A stretch of DNA of 64,000 nucleotides from a virus (Duplodnaviria; Heunggongvirae; Uroviricota; Caudoviricetes), in IMG/VR virus record IMGVR_UViG_3300021426_000080, positions 27,744-91,743 of that record; one strand, given 5' to 3'. Of this stretch, positions 20,485-64,000 are shown one piece after another. The notes under the pieces were generated by a model. It had not been told where the DNA came from and searched no databases. It was given only the letters and a program-made list of their open reading frames with translations. The position numbers were made by a program, and so were the translations under genes. Within the stretch, counting starts at the first letter, position 1, and each line of letters opens with the position of its first letter.

Positions 20485-20532
20485 CAAAAGAATAAGGTGC
20501 GTGATATTCACAATCCTTATTCTTTTTCGCAA
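20485..20532 (+). terminator. terminator hairpin; exact repeat of 19692..19739
   Basis: Identical 48-nt sequence. Confidence 0.7.
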
Positions 20533-46818: not shown

Positions 46819-46969
46819 AAATACATTTATTCTACTTATTATTGTGGCGCTGATCCTTTCGGTGCTTTGGAAACTTTGATATTCGCAAATTAAACATGGT
46901 TTATAGAGGAGAGAGGTCTCGGTAAGTTACCGGGGCTTCTCTTTTATATTTTAAAAGGAGGATTGCCTT

Positions 46970-47841: not shown

Positions 47842-47935
47842 TAAAGCGAAGGGCTTTGATCAAATTGATCAGGGCTCTTCTCTTTTTCTATATAGTAGTT
47901 CGATTAGTGGAGTGAATGGATATTTGAAAGGAGAA

Positions 47936-48076
47936 ATGAAAATGAAGTTTTGGCGTGTTTTGGATAAGCTTACTGAATTCTATATTCCCATCATGGTTAG
48001 TGTTATGGCGTTTTATATTAATTCGGAATACAGAGATCTCAAAGAGAACATTGATTACATTCGTAAGCATGTCTGA
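47936..48076 (+). CDS. small membrane protein (46 aa)
   Basis: RBS GAAAGGAGAA. Possible start at 47942. Confidence 0.35.
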   Translation: MKMKFWRVLDKLTEFYIPIMVSVMAFYINSEYRDLKENIDYIRKHV

Positions 48077-48097
48077 TATTTGAAAGGAGAAATAAAA

Positions 48098-48295
48098 ATG
48101 GTCGAATTCAGCGAACGTGAAAGACGTGCCTGTAGACTTCTGAGCCATCTTAAGTATGATCGTGACACAGATGTGTACACTAAGTGCTGGTTCAATAATA
48201 TGCTCTGTAATATTTCTTATTATATTTTGAAGGTCAATCCGGACAATCTATTCAAGAAGGTTTCGCAGTATGCTAAAGAAAAGGGGAACACCTGA
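48098..48295 (+). CDS. hypothetical protein (65 aa)
   Basis: Leader TGATATTTGAAAGGAGAAATAAAA then ATG. Confidence 0.4.
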   Translation: MVEFSERERRACRLLSHLKYDRDTDVYTKCWFNNMLCNISYYILKVNPDNLFKKVSQYAKEKGNT

Positions 48296-48591
48296 TGGTT
48301 TTAACGTTTATAGATAATTTCCGTTTTAAAGGCGGCGCGAAAGAATGCTCTGATTATAGAGCACTTCTAAATAGAACCGTAAGCTACCTTAATGAATTAC
48401 TTTACGCAAGAGGATACGTTACCGTAAGAGACCTAAACGATCAGTTAGGAAGAAAAAGCGCGTTTGATTCGGATGATTCTCTGTATGGATGGGAAGTACA
48501 GGATGGTCCTATCGAACTCAAGATGCTTCACGACGGAAAATTCAAATTGCATTATCAATTTGAAGCCAAAATTTTGACCTGCATGCTTTGA
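48295..48591 (+). CDS. hypothetical protein (98 aa)
   Basis: ATG overlaps the upstream stop. Confidence 0.4.
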   Translation: MVLTFIDNFRFKGGAKECSDYRALLNRTVSYLNELLYARGYVTVRDLNDQLGRKSAFDSDDSLYGWEVQDGPIELKMLHDGKFKLHYQFEAKILTCML

Positions 48592-48612
48592 TATTTGAAA
48601 GGAGAAATGAAA

Positions 48613-49056
48613 ATGATTAATGCAAACGTAATCACAAAGTTCGGAAAGATGGTTGTTAAAGTCGGCCTTGCTATTGGATCGGTTTATATTCTGTCAAAGG
48701 CGAATGATGAACTCGGAAAATTTGGTTTGAATATTGGGTGCTCGGTTGGAAACGGAATTGATATTCGTCCTGGAGACATTCCGAAGTACAACACTAGGTC
48801 GGTAGAGTTCAATGCAAACAGTGTCACTGAGCGGTCAATTGCTGAGCTGCTTCATGCTTCGTGGAAGACATATTCTACAAACTCGAAGCTCGAATGCGCC
48901 AAGCGTATCTACAACATCGCATTGTCCGGAGATGATAGGACGAAACTGGTTGCGATCCAGGCTCTTGGCCGTATTGCAGACGACTCATATTCTGCTCAGC
49001 TGAAGAATTATGTAAGCAAGGCTATTACTGAGCTTGCAATCGGCAATGACGTTTGA
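48613..49056 (+). CDS. membrane-anchored protein with HEAT-like repeats (147 aa)
   Basis: Leader TTGATATTTGAAAGGAGAAATGAAA then ATG. TM KVGLAIGSVYIL. HEAT-like KLVAIQALGRIADDSYSAQL. Confidence 0.4.
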   Translation: MINANVITKFGKMVVKVGLAIGSVYILSKANDELGKFGLNIGCSVGNGIDIRPGDIPKYNTRSVEFNANSVTERSIAELLHASWKTYSTNSKLECAKRIYNIALSGDDRTKLVAIQALGRIADDSYSAQLKNYVSKAITELAIGNDV

Positions 49057-49069
49057 AAGGAGAATGTAA

Positions 49070-49348
49070 ATGATTATGCGATGGATTTCACGAAAGAATA
49101 AAAGTGAACCAATTTCGGATGATGTTGAGTTCGTAGAAACATTCGGTGGCTGTGTTGGACGAATTGCTTCCGACGATCATCCAAACCATAAACGAATAGC
49201 AATGTACTTTAGAGATGCCTATGATAACGAATCTCCCGTTTATATTTTAAGTCCCAGAGCTGCACGATTCGCTGGATGGCAGCTGTTTAGAAGAGGCGTA
49301 GTTGACGGACTTAAACTTCGACTCGATTATATTAAATACCATAAGTAA
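49070..49348 (+). CDS. hypothetical protein (92 aa)
   Basis: RBS GAAAGGAGAATG. Confidence 0.4.
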   Translation: MIMRWISRKNKSEPISDDVEFVETFGGCVGRIASDDHPNHKRIAMYFRDAYDNESPVYILSPRAARFAGWQLFRRGVVDGLKLRLDYIKYHK

Positions 49349-49368
49349 TAATTTAAAGGAGAATGGAA

Positions 49369-49512
49369 ATGAAAATGATTATTGTTCTTGATAAGATCTG
49401 CCTGCTTGGCATTGTTGGTGTTTCTCTGTATGCTGGATACAAGCTTGGACGGAAAGCTGAGAAACTTGAGCAGAGTCTCAAGCCGAACAAAACCAATTTC
49501 AACAATGATTAA
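49369..49512 (+). CDS. small membrane protein (47 aa)
   Basis: RBS AAAGGAGAATGGAA. TM IIVLDKICLLGIVGVSLYAGY. Confidence 0.35.
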   Translation: MKMIIVLDKICLLGIVGVSLYAGYKLGRKAEKLEQSLKPNKTNFNND

Positions 49513-49528
49513 TTTGGAGGTTTAAATT

Positions 49529-49819
49529 ATGTGTGATTTCTGCAAGAATATTGTTAACAACGATGGAAAATGGAAAAACTCCCTTTTGGCTTCAAGGCAT
49601 TCAAATGATAAGAACCACGGTCTTGACATCATTCTTGGAAAGACGGATGGCAAATTCAAAATTGAAGATGCTAAATTTGTTCGTGATAAATCGATCGATG
49701 CGCCGATTACATATTTGAAAGCCTTTAATTGGCGAAAAGGATCCGATTCAGTAAAGCCTGCGGCATGGACGACAGCCATGGAGATTCATTATTGCCCAAT
49801 TTGTGGCGAAAAACTTTGA
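49529..49819 (+). CDS. zinc-ribbon protein (96 aa)
   Basis: RBS TTGGAGGTTTAAATT. CDFCKN...CPICGEK. Confidence 0.45.
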   Translation: MCDFCKNIVNNDGKWKNSLLASRHSNDKNHGLDIILGKTDGKFKIEDAKFVRDKSIDAPITYLKAFNWRKGSDSVKPAAWTTAMEIHYCPICGEKL

Positions 49820-49851
49820 TATTTTGAACTCTTGAAAGGAGAACTGAAAAC

Positions 49852-50874
49852 ATGAAAGGTACTACTATCGCATTCGCAGCACTCGGACTTATTGATATTG
49901 GTATGATCGTTCTCGATCGTGCCGCAAATCGTCATGGCAGAAAGCTCGCTGAAGCTGAGGCAATCAAGAATCGCGGCGAAGAGGCCAATGCTGTTCTAGA
50001 GGAAGTTAAGAAGCGCTGCGATGCCTATGATGAGCTAATCAAGCGTGAGAAGGTGGAATTCAAGCAGAAGAGAGCTGATTGGCTCGAAGCAAATGCGTTC
50101 AACGCCAAGAAGAAAGATATTCTTGATGGCGTTCCGAATGGTCTCAACGAATTCAAGAAACAGATTGGATATTCTGATGTAATTCAGAGACTTACGGACG
50201 AATACAATGCCGGTGTCGAAGCCGTCAAGAACTCCATTGACTATGACGTAAACAAGAAGAAGTTTGAGAAAGCTATCGCCGATGCCAAGAGCCATTATGA
50301 CAGTCAGAAGGCGCTGTATGACTGTGCCGGCTCTGATATTTCTGATGATGCTATGAAGCTCAGACATGCTGCAGAAGAGGCCATGAATGCCAAGATCAAA
50401 GAGGCTAAGGCAAACCTTGATATTCTTGAGGGCAAGCTTAACGCTGAAGTCGAGAAGCTTACTCAGGTAAAGCAGAATGGCATTCGTGAACTCGAGGAGA
50501 AGATCGCGAAGGAGAAGATTCGTCTGGATCACAAGGCTGACCAGGAGCTCGAGGCACTGAACACAAAGCTCTCTGAAGCAGAACAGGATATTAACAATGC
50601 CATCCTGAATAAGCGGACCGGCGCGGATGCTGAAGCGGAGATTAATCACGCCGATGATATTCGTATCATCCGTGAGCAGAAGAAAGTTGATGCCAAGGCT
50701 GCGGAAGATATTTTCAATGCAAAGCCTGAGACCGTCAAGATTGCAGAATTCCTGAAGGGCCACAAGGTTCCGAAAGTGGTTGTGCCCATGTTCGGTGTTG
50801 TTAGCATGGCGCCTGTTGGATATTTGTCCTATCGCTGGCTCAAGTTCCTTGGGCAGATCATGAGGGCGATGTAA
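49852..50874 (+). CDS. membrane protein with long coiled coil and N- and C-terminal TM helices (340 aa)
   Basis: Leader TTGATATTTTGAACTCTTGAAAGGAGAACTGAAAAC then ATG. N-terminal TM IAFAALGLIDIGMIVL. C-terminal VVPMFGVVSMAPVGYL. Confidence 0.5.
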   Translation: MKGTTIAFAALGLIDIGMIVLDRAANRHGRKLAEAEAIKNRGEEANAVLEEVKKRCDAYDELIKREKVEFKQKRADWLEANAFNAKKKDILDGVPNGLNEFKKQIGYSDVIQRLTDEYNAGVEAVKNSIDYDVNKKKFEKAIADAKSHYDSQKALYDCAGSDISDDAMKLRHAAEEAMNAKIKEAKANLDILEGKLNAEVEKLTQVKQNGIRELEEKIAKEKIRLDHKADQELEALNTKLSEAEQDINNAILNKRTGADAEAEINHADDIRIIREQKKVDAKAAEDIFNAKPETVKIAEFLKGHKVPKVVVPMFGVVSMAPVGYLSYRWLKFLGQIMRAM

Positions 50875-51608
50875 TGAATCCAAAACTGATATTTACGGCA
50901 GCCAAGAAGAATCTTCCATCGATTCTTAGCTGGACTGCTGTAGGTGGCGTTGTTCTGACCGGGTGGCTTACCGATAAAGCTGCCCGGAAGTCAGATCCAA
51001 AGGAACCTTTTAAGAAGCACTGGAAGAATTATATTCCTCCGATCATTGCCGGCGTAGGCACAATCGCATGCGTCGTCGGTTCAAACTGTGCACATTTGAA
51101 GGTTGAAGCAGGACTTGCCGGAGCTGTAGCGTTTTATAAGGCAGCCAAAGAAGACCTTGAAATGGCCGTTTCTGAAGTATATGGAGAAGAAGGCCTTGGA
51201 CAAGTGAAGAAAGCAGCAAATGATATTAATCCTGATCTTTCGGCTATGTATCATGATGCGCCAAGAAGCATTCGCATGTTCGAGCCGTATACGAGCCAGT
51301 GGTTTTACACAACTCCTGAAGAACTTCTCTGGGCTGAGCTTACTGCAAACAAGATGCTGTCTCAAAGAGGCACTGTAAAGCTCAATGATATTTTGAAGCT
51401 TTATAAGAATTGCAAGCCAAAGCCAATTGGAGAAACTCTTGGCTGGAGCTGGGAAGATGAAATGTTTAATGAATCGGCCAGCTGGTACTGTAATGGCGGA
51501 TGGATTGATATTTGTCCTCAGTACGAGGAACGAAACGGAAAACGATGCTACGTTCTGGATTACGGAATCAATCCGATTGATATTTCGCAAATTTTACAAG
51601 GTGTTTAG
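50874..51608 (+). CDS. membrane protein, member of three-gene paralog family (with 51985 and 54645)
   Basis: Two TM helices then a C-terminal domain RGTVKLNDILKLYKN...LGWSWEDE. Compare DGYLSVNDWFCELN...LCWTAES and RGHVFLNEILDAIG...LGWCMGLGDD. Confidence 0.5.
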   Translation: MNPKLIFTAAKKNLPSILSWTAVGGVVLTGWLTDKAARKSDPKEPFKKHWKNYIPPIIAGVGTIACVVGSNCAHLKVEAGLAGAVAFYKAAKEDLEMAVSEVYGEEGLGQVKKAANDINPDLSAMYHDAPRSIRMFEPYTSQWFYTTPEELLWAELTANKMLSQRGTVKLNDILKLYKNCKPKPIGETLGWSWEDEMFNESASWYCNGGWIDICPQYEERNGKRCYVLDYGINPIDISQILQGV

Positions 51609-51716
51609 TAGAGAGATTAGTGACGCATTCACTGATATTTGGTGAGTTCCCGATAAAGCCGGGTTACATCTCTCTTAATTTTTGTGTGCTCGAAATGAGC
51701 AGAAAGGAGAATGGAA

Positions 51717-51860
51717 ATGAAAAACTTGACGTGTGGGATGTTGTTGATCTGTGGAGCGTGTCTGCTGATCGAGCTGCAGATGCTTGGAACTGATCTTCAG
51801 ATTCGAAAGCTGGAGAATAGGATTAATGAAATGACTCAGACAAAGGAGGATGCGGAATGA
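51717..51860 (+). CDS. small membrane protein (47 aa)
   Basis: RBS GAAAGGAGAATGGAA. TM LTCGMLLICGACLLI. Confidence 0.35.
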   Translation: MKNLTCGMLLICGACLLIELQMLGTDLQIRKLENRINEMTQTKEDAE

Positions 51861-51988
51861 AAGTACTTTGTGGAGCGGTTGGCGTATCAATTATATTTGC
51901 AACTGGATTCGTAGCAGGTGTCATTGCTGGTATTGCCATCGCTATGACTCCGGACGCGAAAGATTCGGTATCGGAGGATAAGCAATGA
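51857..51988 (+). CDS. small membrane protein (43 aa)
   Basis: RBS AAGGAGGATGCGGA. TM VGVSIIFATGFVAGVIAGIAIAM. Confidence 0.35.
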   Translation: MKVLCGAVGVSIIFATGFVAGVIAGIAIAMTPDAKDSVSEDKQ

Positions 51989-52797
51989 ATTTCTCAACAA
52001 TCGTAAAAGGATGTAAGATGGCCGTAAAATACAGCGGAAAGCAAATCGTGAAACACGCGCCTGGAATCTTGTGCGGATTTGGTACAGGAGGTGTCGGTTT
52101 TGCTCTCTGGCTTATGGCAAAGAAAGCTCCGGAAGCCAAGAAGGAACTCGATGCCGAAAAGGCCCAATGGGAAGCGACTGAAGATAAGGAGAAGCGAAAT
52201 AAAGCCGATTATATTTTTAAGCTTGTTCGCATTGGCGCAAAGCATTATTGGGTCGTGATCTCAGTTGCTACAGGAGCTATTGTGTGTTTCTGGCTCGCGA
52301 ATCGAATTAATTTCAAGCGGCTCATGTCTGCGTTGACAGCACTTGGAATCAGCACCAAGGGCAAGGAGGAGCTCGAGGAGAAGATCAAAGAACTGGACGG
52401 AGAGAAGCATCTGCAGAAAATTAAGGATGAGATCGATGCCGATAGAATCAAGAATGATCCTCCGGTCCAAGATAAGATTATTGATACAGGACTCGGAACG
52501 CATCTTTGCTATGAGGCAATCACCGGAAGATATTTCTATTCAAACATTGAGCGAATTAAACGGGCGGTTATTACGTGTCGAGACTATCTTCAAAAAGATG
52601 GATATTTGTCAGTGAATGACTGGTTCTGTGAATTAAATCTCGATACAACTGATTTGCAGCTCTGTTGGACGGCAGAGAGTATTGATGAAGTCAATGAGTT
52701 TGATATTGAGACGAGTTCTCAGCTTACTCCTGAAGGTGTTCCGGTCTTGGTAATCAGATACACGACGAACCCGACCATGGAGCGACGAGACTGGTAA
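51985..52797 (+). CDS. membrane protein, paralog family member
   Basis: See 50874..51608. Confidence 0.5.
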   Translation: MNFSTIVKGCKMAVKYSGKQIVKHAPGILCGFGTGGVGFALWLMAKKAPEAKKELDAEKAQWEATEDKEKRNKADYIFKLVRIGAKHYWVVISVATGAIVCFWLANRINFKRLMSALTALGISTKGKEELEEKIKELDGEKHLQKIKDEIDADRIKNDPPVQDKIIDTGLGTHLCYEAITGRYFYSNIERIKRAVITCRDYLQKDGYLSVNDWFCELNLDTTDLQLCWTAESIDEVNEFDIETSSQLTPEGVPVLVIRYTTNPTMERRDW

Positions 52798-52837
52798 CTG
52801 ATTGATATTCCAATAGGGGCTGTACGAGTATGCATAA

Positions 52838-52863
52838 ATCGCAAAAAATACAGTCCCTATAAT
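52838..52863 (+). promoter_or_regulatory. phage promoter motif (A)TCGCAA-N13-TATAAT
   Basis: ATCGCAAAAAATACAGTCCCTATAATGGTAGG. Confidence 0.5.
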
Positions 52864-52904
52864 GGTAGGAAACTACACATTATATTTAAAAGGAGAACAT
52901 GAAA

Positions 52905-53210
52905 ATGGGTCTGTTTAAGAAAAACAAAAAGCTTGAGGTAATCAAGATGGATGAGAATGGAAACGTGATTAATCCCAAACAGAAAAAGGAGAAAGGGAAG
53001 GATCTCGGAAAGAAATTGCTCATTGGAGCACTTGCTATCATTGGAGGTACTATAGCCTTCGTAGGAGTCGGTGCTGCAATGGCGATTGTTGACGAGAAGT
53101 CTTCCGGTAGTGACACGATTGATGTTGGGGACGGCACGATTACGTTCACTCCGAACGAAGACCAGAGCAACAAATCAGAGACAGAGTCTACTGGGACTTC
53201 TGAAGAATAA
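52905..53210 (+). CDS. membrane protein (101 aa)
   Basis: RBS AAAAGGAGAAC. TM LLIGALAIIGGTIAFVGVGAAMAIV. Confidence 0.4.
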   Translation: MGLFKKNKKLEVIKMDENGNVINPKQKKEKGKDLGKKLLIGALAIIGGTIAFVGVGAAMAIVDEKSSGSDTIDVGDGTITFTPNEDQSNKSETESTGTSEE

Positions 53211-53383
53211 TTGATATTCTACCACAAAGAGAAATGGGTTAAACAACTCACTTCTCTTTTGTCTTCGAAGTGAAACGGCATCGAAGTTCTAGAAGAGGAC
53301 TGAGATTGATATTTAACGCAAAATATTCAGCTCTCTTAATGAGGGAATAATTCCTCAGATATTTTGAAAGGAGCAATTTAATC

Positions 53384-53743
53384 GTGAAGAAAAAAGATGC
53401 TGTTGGGAAAGCGAAGCTCGTTGCAGAGATTGTCAGTACAGAAGGAGCTCAGATGCTTGCCTGTGGTCTCTGCCGATTGGTTCTTCCTCCTCAGGTTAAT
53501 ATCGTCGTTAAAGGCGGGATGCTTGTAGGAGGTTGGCTACTCGGTGGATGCCTTGGGGAGCATATGAAAGGATATTTGAACCGACAGATCGATGACGTAG
53601 CGGAATACGTTGAAGAGAGTGTCAAAAGAGTGAAGGAAGATATTGCTATCATTCAGAAAGAATCTGAAGAAACTGAAACCGAAAAGACTGATCAAACTGA
53701 TCAAACAAATGAAAATGATAAAGAAGGAGAAGACTTGGGCTAA
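53384..53743 (+). CDS. membrane protein (GTG start, 119 aa), acidic C-terminus
   Basis: Leader CAGATATTTTGAAAGGAGCAATTTAATC then GTG. Hydrophobic GMLVGGWLLGGCLG. Confidence 0.4.
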   Translation: MKKKDAVGKAKLVAEIVSTEGAQMLACGLCRLVLPPQVNIVVKGGMLVGGWLLGGCLGEHMKGYLNRQIDDVAEYVEESVKRVKEDIAIIQKESEETETEKTDQTDQTNENDKEGEDLG

Positions 53744-53888
53744 ACAGCCCACTTCTCTTTTGTCTTCGAGACTTACATAGTAAGTCAAGATAACGTTGAA
53801 CGCAGTGAAACAGAATCGAAGCTTTCGTAAAAAGCTGAGAAAACGCTGAGCGAAACGACATAGAATCAATTGATATTTCAAGGAGGTA

Positions 53889-54623
53889 ATGAATCACATG
53901 GCTGAAGTGCCAAAAGAAAGCCTTCGAGCGGAAGATATTGATTTTCTCTCGAATGCTCATAAGTATCGGGATGTTGGAAAAGAAAACAGTAATGATATTC
54001 AGGAAGAAAGTACTGATGAGACTCCAAAAAAGACTTTGAATGGCTCTGTCACTTCTAAAAAGCGGTCTCTTGGAAAACAATTCATTGATATTTTCTTTCG
54101 CAATGGTGCAAGCCCAAAGGAAATCAAACGATATGTTATCGAGGATCTGCTCGTACCGGCGATTCTTGAAAACATTGCGGATACCATTCAGACCGTGGTT
54201 GAGATGAGATTCTTTGGGGACACCTGTCGAAGCTCAAGAAGAAACCGAAAATCTGGAAACTCTACAGGATCCAGAATTAATTATGGTGGATATTTTGTCG
54301 GTAATGACAATCGAAGAGACAGATCAAGATCGAGTAACCGGGATCGTGATGATTCTTACCAGGAGCCTCTGGACGACTTTATATTTGATGACAGACGGGA
54401 TGCTGAGATGGTTCTGGTAGACATGAAGGAACTTCTCGATCAATACACTCGTGTAACTGTCGCTGATTATATTGATCTTCTAAAGCAATACGGCGTAAAA
54501 GTCCGTGATGCAGATCATACGGATCAGAAATGGGGCTGGAATGATCTCAGTGATGTAAGAGTGAAGCCGGCCAGAGGTGGAGGACACTATCTCGATCTTC
54601 CAAAAGAGTATCCTGTTGGATAA
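53889..54623 (+). CDS. RS/RD-rich basic protein (244 aa)
   Basis: Leader CAATTGATATTTCAAGGAGG. Alternative ATG at 53898. Low-complexity RSSRRNRKSGNS...RRDRSRSSNRDRDD. Confidence 0.45.
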   Translation: MNHMAEVPKESLRAEDIDFLSNAHKYRDVGKENSNDIQEESTDETPKKTLNGSVTSKKRSLGKQFIDIFFRNGASPKEIKRYVIEDLLVPAILENIADTIQTVVEMRFFGDTCRSSRRNRKSGNSTGSRINYGGYFVGNDNRRDRSRSSNRDRDDSYQEPLDDFIFDDRRDAEMVLVDMKELLDQYTRVTVADYIDLLKQYGVKVRDADHTDQKWGWNDLSDVRVKPARGGGHYLDLPKEYPVG

Positions 54624-54644
54624 ATTGAAAGGAGAATTATATTT

Positions 54645-55655
54645 ATGAAAGTAAAAGCACCTAAATTCGTGTTGGACGCGGTTGCAAAAGCCGGAGTAGC
54701 TGCCGGTAAAGCTGGTCTTAAACTTAAAGCGGCATCTCCGGAACTCATGTTGGCCGGTGGACTTATCGCTGGTGGAGCAGCTTTGGTGGCGGCCTGCATC
54801 GCAACTAAGAAAGTCGTTGAAAATAAGACAATCGCAAATGCTCAGGATAAGCTCGATGATATTCAGAAGAAGGCTGATGGAGCAATCAAGCAGCTGGACG
54901 AAGGCGACTTCTCCGGACTGGTTGGATATGACAATGTTGACGACTGCAAGAAAGATATTAACAAGAATCGTAAGATCGAAAGTCTGAGAGTATATCGTCA
55001 TTTAGCCTGGGAACTGGCTAAAAAGTATGGTCTTTCTGCGTTTCTATTTATGCTCTCTGTGGGCCTTATAATGGGCTCTCACGGCGTTTTGAAAAAGAGG
55101 TACATTTCCTCAACTTTGGCGTACAAAGCGCTTGACGAGGCTTATAAGGACTACAGGAAGCGTGTAAAAGAGGCAGTTGGGGAAGATAAGGAAAAGCATC
55201 TGTTTCTTGGCACTGAAGAGAGCGGCGAAACCACTGTTTATGACGAAAATGGCAATGAAAAGACCGTTAAAGATATTGTTAAAACTCAGGCTAAAAAGTA
55301 CTCGCCTTATGAATTCGATTGGAACGCTCAGACTGCTCCCGGGAATTGGGAAGCGAATTCGGATTATAATCTTATGTTCCTCAAAGGAATTCAGAATTAT
55401 GCCAATGACCTACTGCATTCGAGAGGTCACGTGTTTCTGAATGAGATTTTGGATGCAATTGGGCTTCAAAGGACGCAAGAAGGGCAGTCTTTGGGCTGGT
55501 GTATGGGCCTCGGAGATGATTTTGTTGACTTTGGACTCGAAGAATACTTCACCGATGAGTATTCTGATGCTTCCCAGGATGGATATTTGAAGAATATTCA
55601 CCTCGATATGAACTGTGACGGGAACATTCTGGCGTACGCGTTCAAGAAAAGATGA
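54645..55655 (+). CDS. membrane protein, paralog family member (336 aa)
   Basis: RBS TTGAAAGGAGAATTATATTT. See 50874..51608. Confidence 0.5.
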   Translation: MKVKAPKFVLDAVAKAGVAAGKAGLKLKAASPELMLAGGLIAGGAALVAACIATKKVVENKTIANAQDKLDDIQKKADGAIKQLDEGDFSGLVGYDNVDDCKKDINKNRKIESLRVYRHLAWELAKKYGLSAFLFMLSVGLIMGSHGVLKKRYISSTLAYKALDEAYKDYRKRVKEAVGEDKEKHLFLGTEESGETTVYDENGNEKTVKDIVKTQAKKYSPYEFDWNAQTAPGNWEANSDYNLMFLKGIQNYANDLLHSRGHVFLNEILDAIGLQRTQEGQSLGWCMGLGDDFVDFGLEEYFTDEYSDASQDGYLKNIHLDMNCDGNILAYAFKKR

Positions 55656-56377
55656 ATAAGTGGATATTTTTCGGTTTTGGGGTGGCTCTTGGCTCAGGAG
55701 TCACCTTTTTTGCCGTAAAAAAACACTATCGGGACGTTGCGTATCATGAAATTTCGGAAATGAGGGCATTTTATCGCGAGAAAAAGGCCGAATTGAAAGA
55801 AAAATATGACCCAAAAAGCGACAAAACTGACGCAACTGACTCAAAAAATGATGAAAAATCAGGAAATGAGCATCGTTATGTCAGCGGAAATACCGAAATT
55901 CAGAGCGTTTTGAATAGATATTCGGGCGGAAATCATGGTAATTTTGTCGTTGAACCGCATAAAAAAATCGGAAAAATCGGGGCAAAACGCAATGAAAATC
56001 ATGATATTTCGGACGAAAATGAGGACCATGATGACCGTTTTTATACTGAAGAAGGGGACGATCCCTATGATATTTTTGTGAGCCATGAAGCGCCTTCTGA
56101 GGGCTATGTAGAACAGCCATACCAGATTTCTGAGGAACAATTTGCAAGCGAAAAGCTGCATTATGATAAAGTTACCGTCGAATATTATGCTGACGGAATC
56201 GCCGTAATCGACGAAACTGACGAGATTTTAGACTCTTTGGAAGACCAAATCGGACCTTATATTTTGAGTAAACCGATCGAAGAGAATGAGATTTATGTCA
56301 GGAATGAAGCTCGAAGTACGGACTATTATATTCAGTTGAAAGAGACAAATTTCGTCTCTGAAGAAGGTTCAGATTGA
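55652..56377 (+). CDS. membrane-anchored acidic protein (241 aa)
   Basis: N-terminal TM WIFFGFGVALGSGVTFFAV. ATGA overlap. Confidence 0.45.
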   Translation: MNKWIFFGFGVALGSGVTFFAVKKHYRDVAYHEISEMRAFYREKKAELKEKYDPKSDKTDATDSKNDEKSGNEHRYVSGNTEIQSVLNRYSGGNHGNFVVEPHKKIGKIGAKRNENHDISDENEDHDDRFYTEEGDDPYDIFVSHEAPSEGYVEQPYQISEEQFASEKLHYDKVTVEYYADGIAVIDETDEILDSLEDQIGPYILSKPIEENEIYVRNEARSTDYYIQLKETNFVSEEGSD

Positions 56378-56883
56378 CCTACTTCGACTGGCTGGTGTAT
56401 CAGATTTCGCCAGACTATCATATGCGTGAACGCTACTCAGAACTGTTATTCGCTTTATATTCTACAGAGTTCTTTTGGGCGCTTCCAAGAGATATTAATC
56501 GTGCAAAGGATGGTCTGGATTTACGAAAACAATACGAACGTGAAACAGATGAAGGGGCTGATCTTTTCGGTCCCTGCACCTGTCTTGAGATGATGATCGC
56601 ACTGGCCATTCGATGCGAAAATGAACTAATGTATGACCCGGATTTTGGTGATCGGACAGACCAATGGTTCTGGATCATGATAGATAATTTGGGGTTGGAT
56701 CAGTTCGAAAATGACAGGTTTGATAAGGACGAAGTGGACTATATTTTGAACAGATTTATGAATCGGGAGTATGGTTCGAACGGCGAATTTTGCATGTTTC
56801 CAGGAACAGAATCCGTCAAAAATTTGAAAAAAATGGAGCTCGCCTATCAAATTAATTATTACGTAAAAATGATTTTGTGTTGA
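56374..56883 (+). CDS. hypothetical protein (169 aa)
   Basis: Overlapping start. Confidence 0.45.
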   Translation: MTYFDWLVYQISPDYHMRERYSELLFALYSTEFFWALPRDINRAKDGLDLRKQYERETDEGADLFGPCTCLEMMIALAIRCENELMYDPDFGDRTDQWFWIMIDNLGLDQFENDRFDKDEVDYILNRFMNREYGSNGEFCMFPGTESVKNLKKMELAYQINYYVKMILC

Positions 56884-57119
56884 AAAATCGTGAAAAAATG
56901 AGGTTTTGCGTCAGTTGCGTCACTTTTTTTTAGTACTACGCACGAGAAAAATATATGTTTTTATATATATAAAGGACGAAAAAAAACTGTCATTTTTGAC
57001 GCAAGCCATTTTTGGTGAATTTTTAGAAGAAAGGAGGGAGCAAGACGGATTTTGTAAAAGTCACGTGGAGAGGTCCGAAAAGGAAAGGCGATCCGATTGA
57101 GATATTTCCGATTTTTATT
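56884..57119. promoter_or_regulatory. candidate replication origin / regulatory region (AT-rich core flanked by inverted repeats)
   Basis: TTGCGTCA direct repeat (GCGTCAGTTGCGTCAC). Inverted partner TGACGCAA about 90 nt downstream. AT-rich core TATATGTTTTTATATATATAAAGG. Immediately upstream of the replicase. Confidence 0.35.
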
Positions 57120-60100
57120 GTGAAGAACAGCAAGGACTTGATGATACGAGGAAGCGACTTTTATGCGGTCTGGGATGAGCAACGAGGTGTATGGTCGACT
57201 GAGCAGGATGATGCCACCGGATTGATCGATGCTGAGATGGATGCATACAAAGCAAAGATGGAGAAAGAGAATCCTCAGTTTGCAAACGCAAGAATATTAT
57301 ATTTGTGGAACTCGGATACCGGAATGATCGATAAGTGGCATAAGTATGTTCAAAAGCAGCTTGTTGATAATTTTCATCCGTTGAATCAGAAGGTTGTGTT
57401 TTCGAATACAGAACCGCGACGTGAAGATTATTCGTCTTTTCATTTGCCTTACGCACTTGAGCCAGGAAGCACGGATGCCTGGGATGAAATGGTCAGAACA
57501 TTATATTCTCCTCCAGAACGCCATAAGATTGAATGGCTTATCGGATCAGTTGTAAGTGGCGATAGTAAGGAGCTTCAGAAATTTGGAGTGTTCTACGGTG
57601 ATTCAGGAACGGGTAAATCAACGATCCTTGATATTATCGCAAAAATGTTTAAAGGTTATGACTGCACATTTAATGCGAAAGCGCTTGGAAGCTCTACCAG
57701 CGAATTTGCGTTGGAACCGTTTAAGAACAATCCATTGGTTGCGATTCAGCAGGACGGCGATCTGAGTAAGATTGAAGATAACGCCAGATTGAATAGTCTT
57801 GTGTCCCACGAAGAAATCATTGTGAATGAAAAGCATAAGAGCCAGTATGGAAGCAGGTTCTATGCGATGCTTTTCATGGGAACTAATAAACCGGTTAGAA
57901 TTACGGATTCAAGAAGCGGTATTATTCGAAGACTAATTGATATTTCTCCTACAGGAAAGCTTATTCCGAAGAAACGGTATTTGAAATTGAAGGAACAGAT
58001 TGACTTTGAGCTCGGAGCTATTGCGTGGCATTGCCGTGAGGTGTTTCTTGAGGATCCGTATTATTACGACACCTATACGCCGCAGGCAATGATCGGAGCC
58101 ACAAACGATTTCTACAACTTTATGGAAGAGTATCTGGATGAATTCCTTAGAAAAGATTACACGACTCTGAAAGAAGCATGGACGAAGTACCAGATTTACT
58201 GCAATGAAGCCAAGGTTCCATATCCGTATTCGATGCGATCCTTCAAGGAAGAGTTGAAGAACTACTTCCGCGAGTACAAGGAAAGATATCGTACGGACAG
58301 CGGAGAGCAGCTGCGGAAGTGGTACGGAGGATTGAGAAGATCGAAGTTCGGAATGGAAGAGTTGGTTTCTGAGGAATCTGATGACATTGAAGTAAAAGAT
58401 ATTGCTGATGAGGATGCTGCGGAAGCGGAAGGGTATAGCAATTGGATTAAGCTCGATGAGCGCCCCAGTCTTTTGGATGATATTCTAGCTGATTGTCCTG
58501 CTCAGTATGCTGTTCCGACAGATACTGGCGGGGATCGTCCGGAATTCAAATGGGAGAAATGTAAGACCAAGCTTTGCGATCTGGACACATCAAAGCTGCA
58601 TTACATTCGTTTTCCAATTGATATTCAGAACCATATTGTAATCGACTTTGATCTTAAAGATCCGTCAACCGGCGAGAAATCTCTTGAAAGGAATTTAGCG
58701 GAAGCTTCGAAATGGCCGAAGACATATGTTGAAACCAGTCGGAGCGGAAAAGGTCTTCATTTGCATTATATTTACAAAGGCGACGTTACAAAGTTAAGCC
58801 GAATCTATGACGATAATGTTGAAGTGAAGGTATTTACAGGTAATTCGTCTTTGAGGAGACAGCTAAAGCTCTGCAATGATATTCCGATTGCTGAGATTAA
58901 TTCTGGATTGCCTATGAAGGAGGAGGCGCGAGTGATAAACTTTGATGGTTTGAAGTCTGAGAAGGCCCTTCGAACCGCAATAAAAAGGAATTTAAACAAA
59001 GAGATCCACGCTGACACAAGATCGAGCGTGGATTTTATATTTAAGATCCTGAACGATGCGTATGAATCCGGAATGCATTATGACGTTACCGATCTTCGTC
59101 CTGCGGTGCTTGGGTTTGCTGCAAAAAGCAGTAATCAGTCTGCATATTGTATTAAGCTCGTAACTAAGATGAAGTTCCAGTCAGAAGATATTTCGGAAGA
59201 TACGGCATTTTCCGATGACGATGAACTCGTATTCTTTGACGTTGAAGTGTTCCCGAATTTCTTCGGCGTTGTCTGGATGACAGATACCGGTAATCCGGTT
59301 AAGATGATCAACCCGACAGCAAAAGATATTGAGAAGCTTTGTGAGAGAAAGTTGGTAGGATTCAATAATCGCGAGTATGACAACCACATTCTGTATGCCA
59401 GGATGATGGACTATGATAATTACGGTCTGTATGTTCTTTCGCAGAGAATCATAAGCGGCAGCAAGAATTCTAAGTTTAGGGAAGCATACAATCTGTCTTA
59501 TACAGATATTTACGATTTTGCTTCCAAGAAGCAGAGCTTGAAGAAATGGGAGATCGAGCTTGATATTCATCATCAAGAACTTGGACTTCCGTGGGATCAG
59601 CCGGTTCCTGAAGAGTTATGGGATAAGGTTATGGACTATTGTGTGAACGATGTCGTTGCTACAAAGGCAACGTTTCATGCGTTGAGTGCGGATTTCGTTG
59701 CAAGAGAGATTCTTGCAGATATTTCCGGGCTTACCGTAAATCACACAACAAATCAGCATACAACCAAGATAATCTTCGGCGATGATCCGAATCCTCAGAT
59801 CCAGTTTGTGTATACGGATCTTTCTAAGATGTTTCCTGGGTACGAGTATAACGCAATGGGAATCGATCCGAAAAGATATTCCGGAAAGATCGTTCAGGGT
59901 AAGTCCATCTATCGTGGAGAGGATCCTGGGGAAGGTGGACGAGTTTATGCTCAGCCTGGGATGTATGAGAACGTTGCACTTCTTGATATTGCTTCCATGC
60001 ATCCGTCAAGCATCGAGAATCTGAATCTATTCGGAGATAAGTATACGAAGCGATTCAGCGATCTGAAGAAGATCCGAATTCTTATTAAGCATGGCGATTA

Positions 60101-61088
60101 CGAAGGAGCTGCCAAACTGTTTGACGGGAAGCTTACTGGATATTTGCAGGATAAGACACAGGCAAAGGCTCTTGCTCAGGCTCTGAAGATTGTAATTAAC
60201 AGTGTATACGGTTTGACCTCTGCCAGCTTTGATAATAAGTTCCGCGATCCAAGGAATGTTGATAACATCGTTGCAAAGCGTGGAGCGCTATTTATGATCG
60301 AGCTTCAGAAGGCCGTTGAGGAGAAAGGCTATACAGTTGCACATGTTAAGACCGATTCCATCAAGATTCCGGATGCAAATAACGAGATCATTGATTTCGT
60401 AATGAAGTTCGGAGAAAAGTATGGATATACGTTCGAGCACGAAGCAACTTATGAAAAGCTTTGCCTAGTAAACGAAGCCGTGTATATTGCAAAAGATATT
60501 TCTGATGGGCATTGGACAGCCACAGGAACTCAATTTCAGGTTCCATACGTGTTTAAGACGTTGTTTAGTAAAGAGCCGATTGAGTTTAAGGATGTCTGCG
60601 AGACTAAGAGTGTTAAGACTGCTTTATATTTGGACTTCAACGAGGATCTTCCGAATGTTGAAGATAAAGAAGATCGTCTTCAGAAGCTTCTCAAGAAGTA
60701 TGGGCTGACGATGAGTCAGATTAATGGATATTTGGAAACCGGTGATGCTCCGGATCTTCCAGAGGAATCTGGCACTGCTCTGATGGAAGCCTCTGAATTG
60801 GTAAAAGATATTCGAGCCGGACATGATTACAGATTCATCGGACGTGCAGGATCGTTCTGCCCAGTAATCAATGGCGTTGGTGGTGGATATTTGATGCGAG
60901 AGAAAGACGGCAAGTATTCATTTGCAACAGGAGCAAAAGGATATCGGTGGATGGAAGCCGAAGTTCTTAGAGCTCTTGGAACTGAAGAAGCAATGCGCAG
61001 AATTAATCGAAAGTATTACGCTGCGCTTGTAGATGACGCAATTGCCACAATCTCCGAGTATGGAGACTTTGAGGCCTTTGCGTCTTAA
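57120..61088 (+). CDS. fusion replicase: SF3/D5-type P-loop helicase core + AEP prim-pol domain + 3'-5' exonuclease + family-B DNA polymerase
   Basis: Walker A: VFYGDSGTGKST. AEP motifs VIDFDLKD and SGKGLHLHYIY. Exo I FFDVEVFPNFF and Exo III YCVNDVVAT. PolB motif A DIASMHPS, motif B KIVINSVYG, motif C VKTDSI. GTG start from the track; alternative ATG 57141. Confidence 0.75.
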   Translation: MKNSKDLMIRGSDFYAVWDEQRGVWSTEQDDATGLIDAEMDAYKAKMEKENPQFANARILYLWNSDTGMIDKWHKYVQKQLVDNFHPLNQKVVFSNTEPRREDYSSFHLPYALEPGSTDAWDEMVRTLYSPPERHKIEWLIGSVVSGDSKELQKFGVFYGDSGTGKSTILDIIAKMFKGYDCTFNAKALGSSTSEFALEPFKNNPLVAIQQDGDLSKIEDNARLNSLVSHEEIIVNEKHKSQYGSRFYAMLFMGTNKPVRITDSRSGIIRRLIDISPTGKLIPKKRYLKLKEQIDFELGAIAWHCREVFLEDPYYYDTYTPQAMIGATNDFYNFMEEYLDEFLRKDYTTLKEAWTKYQIYCNEAKVPYPYSMRSFKEELKNYFREYKERYRTDSGEQLRKWYGGLRRSKFGMEELVSEESDDIEVKDIADEDAAEAEGYSNWIKLDERPSLLDDILADCPAQYAVPTDTGGDRPEFKWEKCKTKLCDLDTSKLHYIRFPIDIQNHIVIDFDLKDPSTGEKSLERNLAEASKWPKTYVETSRSGKGLHLHYIYKGDVTKLSRIYDDNVEVKVFTGNSSLRRQLKLCNDIPIAEINSGLPMKEEARVINFDGLKSEKALRTAIKRNLNKEIHADTRSSVDFIFKILNDAYESGMHYDVTDLRPAVLGFAAKSSNQSAYCIKLVTKMKFQSEDISEDTAFSDDDELVFFDVEVFPNFFGVVWMTDTGNPVKMINPTAKDIEKLCERKLVGFNNREYDNHILYARMMDYDNYGLYVLSQRIISGSKNSKFREAYNLSYTDIYDFASKKQSLKKWEIELDIHHQELGLPWDQPVPEELWDKVMDYCVNDVVATKATFHALSADFVAREILADISGLTVNHTTNQHTTKIIFGDDPNPQIQFVYTDLSKMFPGYEYNAMGIDPKRYSGKIVQGKSIYRGEDPGEGGRVYAQPGMYENVALLDIASMHPSSIENLNLFGDKYTKRFSDLKKIRILIKHGDYEGAAKLFDGKLTGYLQDKTQAKALAQALKIVINSVYGLTSASFDNKFRDPRNVDNIVAKRGALFMIELQKAVEEKGYTVAHVKTDSIKIPDANNEIIDFVMKFGEKYGYTFEHEATYEKLCLVNEAVYIAKDISDGHWTATGTQFQVPYVFKTLFSKEPIEFKDVCETKSVKTALYLDFNEDLPNVEDKEDRLQKLLKKYGLTMSQINGYLETGDAPDLPEESGTALMEASELVKDIRAGHDYRFIGRAGSFCPVINGVGGGYLMREKDGKYSFATGAKGYRWMEAEVLRALGTEEAMRRINRKYYAALVDDAIATISEYGDFEAFAS

Positions 61089-61123
61089 TTGATATTTTTC
61101 AAATTTGAAAGGAGAATTTAACC

Positions 61124-61606
61124 ATGGCAAGAACAGATGTACCTAACATTAGCATTGACAACGCACAGATTCGTTTCCGTAATTTTACTGGAGAGCCGAC
61201 GAAGTTCGACAAAGCCGGAGGAAAGAGAACGTTCAGCGTTATTCTTGACGCCGAAATGGCAGACAAGCTTCGTGATGACGGATGGAATGTAAAGTCCTGG
61301 GAGCCCGATGGAGCTGATGAGCCGATCTATCATCTTCCGGTTGAGATTTCGTATAAGATATATCCTCCGAAGGTGTGGATGATCTCTGGGAATAAAAAGA
61401 CCATGCTTCAGGAAGATACAATTTCTGCTCTCCAGTATGCTGAATTTACTAAAGTTCAGCTTATTATCCGTCCTTATTGCTGGGAAGTGAACGGCAAGTC
61501 TGGCATTAAGGCCTATGTCAAAGCGATGTATGTAACCATCGAGGAAGACGAATTCGAGAAAGAGTATCGGAACTTCGAGGATGATGAAGACGATCTTCCG
61601 TTCTAA
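61124..61606 (+). CDS. putative phage ssDNA-binding protein (DUF2815-like)
   Basis: Leader TTGATATTTTTCAAATTTGAAAGGAGAATTTAACC then ATG. Acidic C-terminal tail EDDEDDLPF, typical of SSBs. Position next to the polymerase. Confidence 0.45.
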   Translation: MARTDVPNISIDNAQIRFRNFTGEPTKFDKAGGKRTFSVILDAEMADKLRDDGWNVKSWEPDGADEPIYHLPVEISYKIYPPKVWMISGNKKTMLQEDTISALQYAEFTKVQLIIRPYCWEVNGKSGIKAYVKAMYVTIEEDEFEKEYRNFEDDEDDLPF

Positions 61607-61615
61607 GATATTTAT

Positions 61616-61650
61616 AGGGGCTGTCTGAAATATGGCAGCCTCTTTTTTTT
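61616..61650 (+). terminator. rho-independent terminator
   Basis: GGGGCTGTC-N9-GCAGCCTC followed by T8. Confidence 0.6.
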
Positions 61651-61673
61651 AGATATTTGAAGAGGAGCGAACT

Positions 61674-62918
61674 ATGCCATCGTTTTTATACGATTATCAA
61701 ATAGACGCTATTAATCGAATGCGAAATGGCAGTATTCTATGTGGAAAAGTTGGATCCGGAAAGTCAAGAACTTCTATTGCTTATTATTTCATGAAAGAAT
61801 GTGGCGGCTCCGTAATAAATGAGTATATACCGATGTGTAAAACGGTTAATCTGTTTATTATTACTACTGCACGAAAAAGGGATACAAAAGAATGGGAAGG
61901 AGAACTCGTTCCATTCTTGATATCCGCAGATCATCCCGAAGATACGATCTATCAAGATCTTGAAGTTCACATCGATTCATGGAACAACATAGCAAAGTAT
62001 GTTGGAGTAAAAGACTCATTCTTTATATTTGATGAGCAGCGTGTTGTTGGAAGAGGCGCTTGGGTTAAAGCGTTCTTAAAGATTACAAAAGCAAATCATT
62101 GGATTTTACTGTCGGCAACGCCTGGCGATACTTGGATGGATTATGTTCCTGTTTTTATAGCAAATGGATATTTTAGAAACAGAACCGAGTTCAATGAGAG
62201 GCATGTTGTGTTTAGTCGATTTGCGAAGTATCCTCAAGTTTCTAAATATTTGAACGAAGGTCGATTAATTAGATATAGAAACGAGATCCTTGTTACAATG
62301 GATTATCAGAAGCCAACCAGAACTCATGAAGTAATAGTGGATGTCGACTACGATCGAGCTGAATACAAAGATATTATGAACACGCGTTGGAACATTTACA
62401 AAGATCAACCAACTACAAACGCTGCTGAGCTTTGCTACGTTCTTAGAGAGTCTGTCAATTCCGATCCAAGCAGGATCCAAGCGGTTCTTGATATTTTAAA
62501 AGATCATCCAAAGGTCATAGTGTTTTACAATTACAACTATGAGCGAGAGGCTTTGAGGAATGCTCCTTATGGAAAAGATATTTCAGTTGCTGAATGGAAC
62601 GGCGATAAGCATCAGTTAATTCCTAAAACTGATAAGTGGGTGTATCTGGTTCAGTATACAGCAGGAGCCGAAGGCTGGAACTGCATAGAAACAGATACTA
62701 TGATATTTTACTCTTTGAATTATTCATACAAAATCATGACTCAGTCGGCCGGAAGGATTGATCGAATGAATACTCCGTTTACTGATTTGTATTATTACAA
62801 GTTGAAATCAAATAGTCCTATAGATATTGGCATTTCGCACGCGCTTCGAAAGAAACAGAAGTTTAATGAGAACAAATTCTTTGATTCTTTTGATTCGCAA
62901 AAAAAACATCCCTTATAA
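61674..62918 (+). CDS. SNF2/DEAD-like superfamily-2 helicase
   Basis: RBS GAAGAGGAGCGAAC. Motif I GKVGSGKSRTS. Motif II FIFDEQR. Motif III LLSATPG. Motif VI QSAGRIDR. Confidence 0.7.
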   Translation: MPSFLYDYQIDAINRMRNGSILCGKVGSGKSRTSIAYYFMKECGGSVINEYIPMCKTVNLFIITTARKRDTKEWEGELVPFLISADHPEDTIYQDLEVHIDSWNNIAKYVGVKDSFFIFDEQRVVGRGAWVKAFLKITKANHWILLSATPGDTWMDYVPVFIANGYFRNRTEFNERHVVFSRFAKYPQVSKYLNEGRLIRYRNEILVTMDYQKPTRTHEVIVDVDYDRAEYKDIMNTRWNIYKDQPTTNAAELCYVLRESVNSDPSRIQAVLDILKDHPKVIVFYNYNYEREALRNAPYGKDISVAEWNGDKHQLIPKTDKWVYLVQYTAGAEGWNCIETDTMIFYSLNYSYKIMTQSAGRIDRMNTPFTDLYYYKLKSNSPIDIGISHALRKKQKFNENKFFDSFDSQKKHPL

Positions 62919-63789: not shown

Positions 63790-64000
63790 ATGGACGATAG
63801 TCAACGTGGTAGAAAGATATTTGTCGCAATCGACAGATTGAACGATCGGTTCCTTGAACACTATGGAACTCCAAGGCATTCTGGAAGATATCCTTGGGGT
63901 TCTGGTAAGAATCCTCAAAGAAACAAAAACTTTCTTTCAAGAGCTAAGGACCTTGAAAAGCAAGGACTTACTCAAAAGCAGATTGCAGAAGCCTTCGGCA
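63790..64000 (+). CDS. protein with RYPWG motif and HTH (LTQKQIAEAFG), 3' partial - possible terminase small subunit/regulator
   Basis: RBS GAAGGAAGAAGGATAAG. Runs off the window end. N-terminal motif shared with 15116..15289. Confidence 0.4.
   Translation, partial: MDDSQRGRKIFVAIDRLNDRFLEHYGTPRHSGRYPWGSGKNPQRNKNFLSRAKDLEKQGLTQKQIAEAFG

Follow-up and report, generated by a model that had tools for sequence, protein, structure and literature searches.

Genomic context

The 64,000-nucleotide stretch analyzed here (the window; positions 27,744 to 91,743 of the IMG/VR record IMGVR_UViG_3300021426_000080) is a portion of a siphophage genome with strong ribosome-binding sites of the Firmicute type, and its plus strand carries every gene. 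The element under study is a short A/T-only core, ATATT, in the word T[G/T]ATATTT, which lies directly upstream of the Shine-Dalgarno (SD) sequence of some genes and, in most copies, inside genes. The original prediction had described its G form as a promoter-like motif confined to a block at 48-62 kb. The window is organized as follows:

0-11.4 kb, plus strand: tail genes
11.5-47.8 kb, plus strand: about 85 small genes
47.6-47.9 kb, plus strand: helix-turn-helix (HTH) regulator, then a terminator (47848-47880)
48-63.8 kb, plus strand: replication block
63790-64000, plus strand: start of the gene for a phage two-barrel RNA polymerase (RNAP), cut by the window end; ATATT enrichment stops here
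11500-63789, plus strand: polar word domain with ATATT 290 times on the plus strand and 97 on the minus strand, 5.55 per kb, mostly intragenic

The lineage corresponds to the 'supercluster' of bioRxiv 10.1101/842583, whose members have in common the replication module and an RNAP of about 900 residues with two barrels and HTH ends. In a contig 95% identical to the window (L001), the RNAP gene is intact (922 aa, L001 12083-14851); its product is YonO/QDE-1-like, with an HTH domain at each end. The replication block encodes a helicase/primase/polymerase fusion of 1322 aa (57120-61088) with 53% identity to its counterpart in the Faecalibacterium phage FP_oengus and 45-49% identity to counterparts in many actinophages. 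No near-identical DNA was found in known phages, and an Rfam scan of the replication block returned no known RNA family.

A composite motif at gene starts

The motif upstream of start codons is a composite of the ribosome-binding site usual for this phage and one copy of a strand-specific word. Its right half, TTTGAAAGGAGAA, is the consensus extended SD sequence, which is used at many genes without the left half, and in relatives as well; it occurs without the word at 23529 and 49046, and at 19919 it comes after a T-variant copy. The left half is the word itself. The composite is clearly non-random, as the 19-mer TTGATATTTGAAAGGAGAA is found eight times at three or fewer mismatches versus 0.07 expected. 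GATATT is present at all 15 sites named by the original prediction, displaced by 0-13 nt, and the eight of them said to adjoin an SD sequence have it at 47919, 48075, 48590, 49818, 53358, 53872, 61091, and 61652. The SD-adjacent sites and the related copies are:

47917-47944, plus strand: TGGATATTTGAAAGGAGAAATGAAAATG, word, ribosome-binding site, and start of a 44-aa gene, about 40 nt past the terminator 47848-47880
48073-48100, plus strand: CTGATATTTGAAAGGAGAAATAAAAATG, whose TGA terminates gene 47942-48076; a 65-aa gene starts here
48588-48615, plus strand: TTGATATTTGAAAGGAGAAATGAAAATG, whose TGA terminates gene 48295-48591; a 147-aa gene starts here
49816-49854, plus strand: TTGATATTTTGAACTCTTGAAAGGAGAACTGAAAACATG, word-SD gap of 10 nt; the TGA is the stop codon of gene 49529-49819
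53356-53386, plus strand: CAGATATTTTGAAAGGAGCAATTTAATCGTG, 3' of a type-1 element (53317-53345; see below) and a hairpin (53340-53357); conserved in contigs L001, L004, and L005
53870-53900, plus strand: TTGATATTTCAAGGAGGTAATGAATCACATG, upstream of a 241-aa gene (phrog_4079)
61089-61126, plus strand: TTGATATTTTTCAAATTTGAAAGGAGAATTTAACCATG, between the primase-polymerase gene and the gene for a single-strand annealing protein
61650-61676, plus strand: TAGATATTTGAAGAGGAGCGAACTATG, directly past the terminator 61616-61643, upstream of the helicase gene
61607, plus strand: second GATATTT copy at the helicase site, 5' of the hairpin
18364 (to 18370), 18692, 19919, 23117, 33846, 39685, 45688, 46945, and 52881, plus strand: nine TATATTT copies directly 5' of an SD sequence
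51577-51612 (site 51579), plus strand: TTGATATTT, predicted to be isolated; in-frame Asp-Ile near the end of gene 50874-51608, running into the type-1 element TCGCAAATTTTACAAGGTGTTTAGTAGA
53306-53345 (site 53308), plus strand: TTGATATTT, predicted to be isolated; directly 5' of the type-1 element CGCAAAATATTCAGCTCTCTTAATG
52802-52866, plus strand: TTGATATTC, predicted to be isolated; past the stop codon of gene 51985-52797, followed by a type-1 element (52839-52866)

The sites at 47919, 48075, and 48590 occupy three consecutive gene junctions with a common 27-mer (93-100% identical), and at 48075, 48590, and 49818 the TGA of TGATATTT doubles as the stop codon of the upstream gene. The gap between the word and GAAAGGAG is only 1-2 nt at five of the eight SD-adjacent sites.

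The G form beside an SD sequence is indeed concentrated in the block: GATATT lies at -36 to -14 of the start codon in 8 of 24 genes at 47.9-64 kb versus 3 of 84 at 11.5-47.9 kb (Fisher p = 2e-4) and in none of the 10 genes at 0-11.5 kb. When each segment is shuffled, the -38 to -13 segments at 47.9-64 kb contain nine copies of ATATT versus 2.2 expected. The motif is not confined to the block, however. The octamer TGATATTT occurs 45 times from 530 to 62701, always on the plus strand (6 expected), and 131 of the 161 GATATT copies fall within predicted genes. Nor is the place upstream of early genes essentially empty, as had been claimed, since TATATTT takes the same SD-adjacent position at 10 of the 84 genes at 11.5-47.9 kb. 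The sequences called isolated exist, but several are coding sequence or stand directly 5' of a type-1 element (as GATATT does at 53308, 46878, and 17943) and are not independent.

When the local A/T-rich composition is allowed for, SD-adjacent ATATT is still 2.8-fold over-represented (26 copies versus 9.3 expected), with values of 4-fold inside the replication block and 2.3-fold ahead of it. This excess is about the same size as the intragenic excess described below; therefore, the SD-adjacent copies belong to one general phenomenon.

Over-representation and conservation of sense-strand ATATT

The two commonest 8-mers of the whole window are TGATATTT (45 copies on the plus strand, none on the minus strand) and TTATATTT (42 and 2). 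As every gene lies on the plus strand, a plain dinucleotide-shuffle null is misleading, and codon and synonymous-codon shuffles were used instead. When codons are shuffled within genes, 45 copies of GATATT are expected and 128 are observed; for TGATATTT the numbers are 2.6 and 33. The synonymous-codon shuffle, which leaves the proteins unchanged, makes ATATT by far the most over-represented word (z = 14.5, with the next unrelated word below 7), with 112 copies of ATATTT versus 36 expected and 128 of GATATT versus 54.

About 80% of the copies are intragenic and lie in all three frames, each with an excess (85 versus 41, 28 versus 9.6, and 15 versus 2.3 expected); among Asp-Ile pairs, 80% are spelled GATATT. 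The preferred form is T[G/T]ATATT[T/C], and there is no enrichment of the C and A variants. The consensus TATAAT shows no enrichment either (z = -1.0), the A/U words ATATA (z = -4.4) and AATAT (z = -3.3) are depleted, and so, apart from the word under study, are T-rich words on this A-rich strand. There is little avoidance of antisense copies, with 83 found versus 106 expected (-22%, z = -3.3), a deficit comparable to that of other A/T words.

Sites are also retained during divergence. In comparisons with relatives at 87-90% nucleotide identity, 45 of 51, 68 of 82, and 78 of 83 ATATT sites are kept (83-94%), versus 60-68% for other A/T-only 5-mers and 55-63% for all pentamers (p = 5e-5 to 7e-8). 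Purifying selection acts on individual ATATT sites. As the excess survives protein-preserving shuffles, the word is selected at the level of the nucleic acid, on the sense strand. Copies are spaced slightly more regularly than random (coefficient of variation 0.88 versus 1.00, P = 0.016). The idea that each gene needs one copy was rejected, with 21 genes lacking a copy and 18 expected to.

Distribution along the genome

The word is tied to a gene class, being rare in late, structural genes and in the RNAP gene. ATATT has an observed-to-expected ratio of 1.5-2.2 at 11.5-64 kb. Among the tail genes, the ratio is 2.0 for the distal ones (0-4.4 kb) and 1.1 for those at 4.4-11.5 kb. Beyond the window end, contig L001 has plus/minus counts of 28/2 in the polymerase gene, 8/0 in the helicase gene, 10/6 in the RNAP gene, and 10/11 in the next 5 kb, while the octamer falls from six and three copies in the polymerase and helicase genes to none from the RNAP gene on. 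GATATT is about twice as dense at 48-64 kb as at 12-48 kb, whereas the density of TATATT is constant; this doubling is the real basis of the block-specific impression conveyed by the original prediction.

The word is evenly distributed along genes, apart from an accumulation of octamers 20-30 nt 5' of the start codon (12 versus 1.7 expected). There is a weak association with terminators: the word lies within 25 nt downstream of 5 of 15 terminators in the window (16% expected) and of 3 of 18 in FP_oengus (7% expected).

The word in related phages

The core of the word is common to phages of two host phyla, while its flanks are clade-specific. TGATATTT is the top 8-mer of FP_oengus (50% GC; 36 plus, 2 minus), with 31 of the 36 copies in the non-structural arm, and it is similarly polar in the gut scaffold MT835485 (40% GC; 31 and 2). 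Across 48 loci retrieved via the helicase (31-57% GC), mostly from Lachnospiraceae and other Clostridia genomes and metagenome-assembled genomes, T[GT]ATATTT occurs 890 times on the plus strand and 53 times on the minus strand, and ATATT 3580 and 1517 times over 784 kb. In Gordonia phage Rickmore (51% GC), ATATT counts are 120 and about 10, with about four copies per kb at 24-56 kb, whereas the structural module, 24 kb long and of equal base composition, has only nine. The Rickmore flanks are non-A on the 5' side and T or C on the 3' side, and ATATTT-AGGAGA stands immediately 5' of several start codons. Streptomyces phage SendItCS (58% GC) has counts of 37 and 4. Genomes enriched in the word span 35 to 58% GC. 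Lactococcus phage 1706 (34% GC) shows no enrichment (184 and 237) despite its conserved gene core.

The place upstream of the helicase gene that matches window position 61652 contains ATATT in 20 of 47 relatives (background 0.16, p = 2e-5). Copies in FP_oengus are often placed 3' of the SD sequence, ahead of the ATG; in five genes, TGATATTT(T) fills the SD-ATG spacer (L013 7142, 9355, 9646, 16427, and 17076), whereas in the window it precedes the SD sequence. The deposited FP_oengus prophage (L013/L014) has TGATATTT at 21-28 and as its last eight bases (58384-58391), so the attachment-site repeat may contain the word.

The type-1 element and other features

A second, longer element of promoter-like appearance (type-1) has the consensus CGCA[AT]-N4-8-ACA-N3-8-TATAATG(G/A) and often lies directly past a terminator. 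Among 16 window matches to the corresponding regular expression, 15 fit the element, all on the plus strand: 11608, 17956, 18312, 20212, 20719, 21167, 22008, 22731, 33552, 35952, 45112, 45640, 47532, 52840, and 62896. Type-1 26-mers are near-identical between the gut phage and Gordonia/Streptomyces phages, and the element occurs also at L019 30095-36843 and L022 8178-15476. Its TATAAT box abuts the SD sequence in at least five copies (33552, 35952, 45112, 19734, and 44741) and is therefore unlike a sigma-70 -10 box. The phage RNAP may use the type-1 element as its promoter.

Two local arrangements involve both elements. An exact direct repeat of 48 nt (19692-19739 and 20485-20532) folds into a hairpin (AAGAATAAGG...CCTTATTCTT) whose loop contains GATATT; next comes TTTCGCAA, with which a type-1 element begins. 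A possible hydrophobic mini-open reading frame of 22 aa (MAENTFILLIIVALILSVLWKL, 46811-46879) ends in a TGA that is also the TGA of TTGATATTC, running into the type-1 element at 46883.

Other features of the window include three paralogs of DUF6353 (phrog_2152) in the replication block (50874-51608, 51985-52797, and 54645-55655), a family conserved across the supercluster. The Walker-A region of a second, small P-loop gene (24740-25255) has 72% DNA identity to that of the primase-polymerase (57574-57626), and the best tblastn matches of this gene fall within the polymerase genes of relatives. The segment 11533-11598 scores 44 bits as a tRNA in Rfam (gathering threshold 29), although ARAGORN reports no tRNA in the window; it is flanked by two type-1-like elements (11506 and 11607). 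A diverged repeat (AGCAAAGGAA...GCAAAGGAA...) occurs three times at 34867-35260, with a spacing of 149-200 nt, inside a gene-free stretch of 464 nt (34868-35333). Diverged repeats with 68-82% identity are also found within and between the tail-fiber-like genes (4245-4364, 7533-7652, and 8025-8144; 4780-4948 and 5925-6093).

Possible readers of the word

The restriction of the word to the sense strand and to one gene class, and its independence of the host phylum, make it probable that a phage-determined factor reads it along the direction of transcription. On sequence grounds, the favored interpretation is that ATATT (AUAUU in RNA) could be a recognition or cleavage signal marking pre-late transcripts or the non-template strand, to which a probability of roughly 0.35 is assigned. 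The word would act on pre-late transcripts or on the non-template strand; recognition or cleavage at AUAUU would give pre-late mRNAs a class-specific fate, and copies just 5' of an SD sequence would yield processed, short-leader, translatable 5' ends. The mRNAs of late genes and of the RNAP would lack the mark. Such an interpretation could account for the near-neutral antisense copies, which are expected if the mark is read on RNA, as well as for the intragenic copies and the placement in translation initiation regions, of which the SD-ATG spacer in FP_oengus is another position. Seen more broadly, the word might constitute a 'class code': a 5-nt sense-strand mark about every 180 nt on all genes except the late genes and the RNAP gene, phage-determined and host-independent. 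This proposal is similarly tentative, and the reader could be a factor acting on RNA, a factor acting on the non-template strand, or an initiating polymerase.

Several observations weigh against a class mark read on RNA. Arthrobacter phage Circum (45% GC) shows no ATATT enrichment (76 plus, 93 minus) despite having the whole conserved gene core; therefore, the function is dispensable or has diverged there. The edge of the word domain, sharp in the window, FP_oengus, and Rickmore, is softer over 28 further loci, where the plus/minus ratio is 2.3 before the RNAP gene and 1.6 from it on. No flip of the word to the sense strand was seen in the handful of genuine minus-strand genes, although these comprise only an integrase and a transposase, most minus-strand open reading frames being probably spurious. 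No RNA-cutting or RNA-binding protein was recognized among the proteins scanned, which took in a minority of the small ones. Profiling for a reader protein present with the word and absent without it, with the window and Rickmore proteins as queries, gave no candidate; the apparent matches were structural genes outside the fetched stretches or out-of-frame open reading frames. To our knowledge, no known cleavage or decay mark reaches such a density.

A minimal start site for the phage two-barrel RNAP, with initiation at or within ATATT (e.g., at the first A after a non-A base), is an unlikely but serious alternative. SD-adjacent copies would then give leaders of about 24 nt beginning right before the SD sequence, FP_oengus transcripts would be near-leaderless, and intragenic copies would add downstream sense transcription. 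A polymerase of the appropriate kind, with HTH domains at both ends, is encoded by the phage. The type-1 TATAAT box abutting the SD sequence makes starts at such a box plausible for this enzyme, and the box tolerates TTTATT and TTATTT, which are close to TATATT. Transcription start sites generally prefer a pyrimidine at -1 and a purine at +1, a preference that the flanks of the word (non-A before, A first) fit, and the word is found past terminators somewhat more often than expected (5 of 15). The promoters of YonO-type RNAPs are not defined in the literature; early transcripts made by the related virion two-barrel RNAP of a crAss-like phage start without a detectable common motif. The link between the word and the RNAP is nevertheless unsupported by their presence and absence across genomes. 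Circum and 1706 have the RNAP without the word, the 70.6-kb scaffold MT835485 (possibly incomplete) has the word without an RNAP homolog, and the polar index is alike in loci with and without an RNAP match within 10 kb (0.43 and 0.48). Antisense copies, moreover, are not clearly avoided, the base 3' of the word is a pyrimidine versus the G that follows the type-1 box, and 5-7 informative bases are very little for a promoter. As a matter of speculation, the RNAP could be made late and possibly carried in the virion, its gene lacking ATATT enrichment like the late genes.

It is less probable still that the phage primase-polymerase primes at the word on the lagging-strand template, reading the plus strand 3'-to-5' from ...Y-TTATA to give primers beginning with pppAAUAU. 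The 3' pyrimidine would be a 'cryptic' base, as in the primase sites of T7 and T4. The word is short, strictly one-stranded, and followed by a pyrimidine; its spacing is slightly regular; the enzyme (45-53% identity) is present in every word-bearing genome; and the persistence of the word on one strand across the few minus-strand open reading frames agrees, weakly, with a replication signal. In A/T-rich 1706, chance sites (3.6 per kb) would suffice, which would explain the missing enrichment. The structural module and the RNAP gene are replicated too, however, and the density there is about 10-fold lower, in Rickmore at equal base composition. Circum encodes the same enzyme without the word, and 5.5 sites per kb far exceed the need for Okazaki priming.

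There is little to recommend a role purely as ribosome-binding-site context, i.e., an A/U-rich unstructured stretch with an upstream TGA stop codon serving as a translational enhancer or standby site. Such a role would agree with the word abutting an SD sequence at no fewer than 17 genes, with the word's TGA ending the upstream gene at three sites, and with the top words of the -38 to -13 segments (TTTGA, TTGAA, and TGAAA). It covers at most about 10% of the copies, though, and leaves the intragenic excess in all frames, the conservation of sites, and the specificity for ATATT over ATATA and AATAT unexplained.

The promoter model of the original prediction, in which GATATT is the -10 box of middle/late promoters read by the host RNAP with a phage sigma-like factor (cf. 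SPO1 gp33/34 and T4 gp55), now appears very improbable. SPO1 late promoters combine a -35 CGTTAGA with a -10 GATATT, so the hexamer is identical; the -10 positions A2 and T6 are kept in [G/T]ATATT at all sites, and the replication block is richer in the G variant. The remaining architecture is missing: across the 17 SD-adjacent sites, the best TTGACA match reaches 1-4 of 6 positions without a TG extension, no upstream position exceeds 0.8 bit except TT at -2/-1, and CGTTAGA is never found 14-20 nt upstream of GATATT (it occurs once in the whole window). With the word 1-2 nt from GAAAGGAG (1 nt from AGGAGA in Rickmore), a start at the sigma-70 distance of 6-8 nt downstream would lie within the SD sequence or beyond it. 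Copies are mostly intragenic (131 of 161 for GATATT), individually conserved, and not confined to positions upstream of transcription units. A T4-type late promoter consisting of a -10 box only would precede structural genes, yet the late genes lack the word. No sigma factor was recognized among the replication-block proteins scanned, TATAAT shows no excess, and another promoter-like element precedes the site at 53358 and T-variant sites such as 52881, 45688, and 18364 by 20-35 nt. The very short leaders that had been proposed hold only if transcription starts at or within the word by a polymerase without sigma-70 geometry. What survives of the proposed temporal class with its own factor is the link to a gene class and the existence of a phage-encoded RNAP, not a separate middle/late promoter class of the -10 type; in annotation, GATATTT beside an SD sequence in these genomes should not be called a promoter.

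Host-type readings (Chi, the NusG pause motif TTNTTT, and a sigma-A -10 box) were rejected as the core spans two host phyla; in addition, the ATATTC forms do not fit TTNTTT, and TATAAT, the sigma-A box, is not enriched. Lack of function, with the word as a by-product of base composition, codon-pair bias, or coding-strand mutation bias, can be practically dismissed: a single-strand gene layout makes any coding bias look strand-specific and GAT and ATT are preferred codons, but the excess persists in three frames when protein and codon usage are preserved, ATATT sites are conserved beyond other A/T-only words, T-rich words are otherwise depleted on the A-rich strand, and the enrichment extends over genomes from 35 to 58% GC.

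Comparison with known systems

Polar over-represented words (Chi and KOPS) and SD-adjacent motifs of actinophages are already known kinds of features. Start-associated sequences (SAS) of Cluster K mycobacteriophages, with similar ones in Microbacterium Cluster EF, are mentioned in PMC7302621 as an SD-containing motif a few bases upstream of some starts. The present motif resembles them in being a conserved SD-containing motif 5' of the start codons of a gene subset (here eight G-variant and nine or ten T-variant genes). SAS, however, are 13 bp long and restricted to intergenic gaps, whereas the present word has 5-8 nt, lies outside the SD sequence, and is about 80% intragenic.

Like Chi and KOPS/SRS, the word is short, over-represented against a coding-aware null, and nearly one-stranded. 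Chi and KOPS/SRS, however, are rich in G, have host readers (RecBCD/AddAB or FtsK/SpoIIIE), and track the direction of replication over the whole replicon; the present word is A/T-only, belongs to one gene class, and shows no enrichment in the structural module or the RNAP gene. The occurrence of its core in phages of both Clostridia and Actinobacteria speaks against a reader specific to the host. T4 RegB, which acts on GGAG in the initiation regions of early mRNAs, offers the likeness of a sense-strand word at early ribosome-binding sites that is scarce in late mRNAs and allows a phage to handle one temporal class of mRNA separately, but RegB cuts inside the SD sequence, its sites are not enriched within genes, and no RegB-like enzyme was recognized among the proteins scanned here.

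The late promoters of T4 (TATAAATA) and SPO1 likewise carry an A/T-rich, -10-like class signal, identical in the SPO1 hexamer. They stand upstream of late genes, with the start 6-8 nt downstream and, in SPO1, with the -35 CGTTAGA, while the word avoids late genes. The vaccinia early termination signal (TTTTTNT) is also short and strand-specific and varies in frequency with temporal gene class; it is depleted inside early genes, in which respect it is the opposite of the enriched word. Primase sites (T7 5'-GTC, T4 5'-GTT/GCT) share the short template word, the 3' flanking base, and a phage enzyme as a possible reader, but no strong enrichment, one-strandedness, or restriction to a gene class is known for them. 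The FP_oengus paper, the supercluster preprint, the Microbacterium phage survey, and a full-text search for TGATATTT yielded no description of the word. As far as checked, a host-independent sense-strand pentamer that belongs to one gene class and is selected inside coding sequence is new.

Implications

The claim of a block-specific promoter was thus mostly wrong, yet it points to something more interesting. The class code, if true, would be a new way for a virus to distinguish its own gene classes, and a functional class mark, if real, would give simple access, at the sequence level, to gene regulation across a widespread group of phages. FP_oengus-like phages are reported from as many as 40% of human gut virome samples (PMC5883640). 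The lineage, which also takes in the actinophage clusters DJ and BI, has been noted to move between Firmicutes and Actinobacteria, its base composition being poorly adapted (bioRxiv 10.1101/842583). A host-independent signal could help explain this mobility. As Gordonia phage Rickmore, Streptomyces phage SendItCS, and FP_oengus are cultivable members, the word is directly testable. Synonymous recoding of pre-late genes in these phages may not be neutral.

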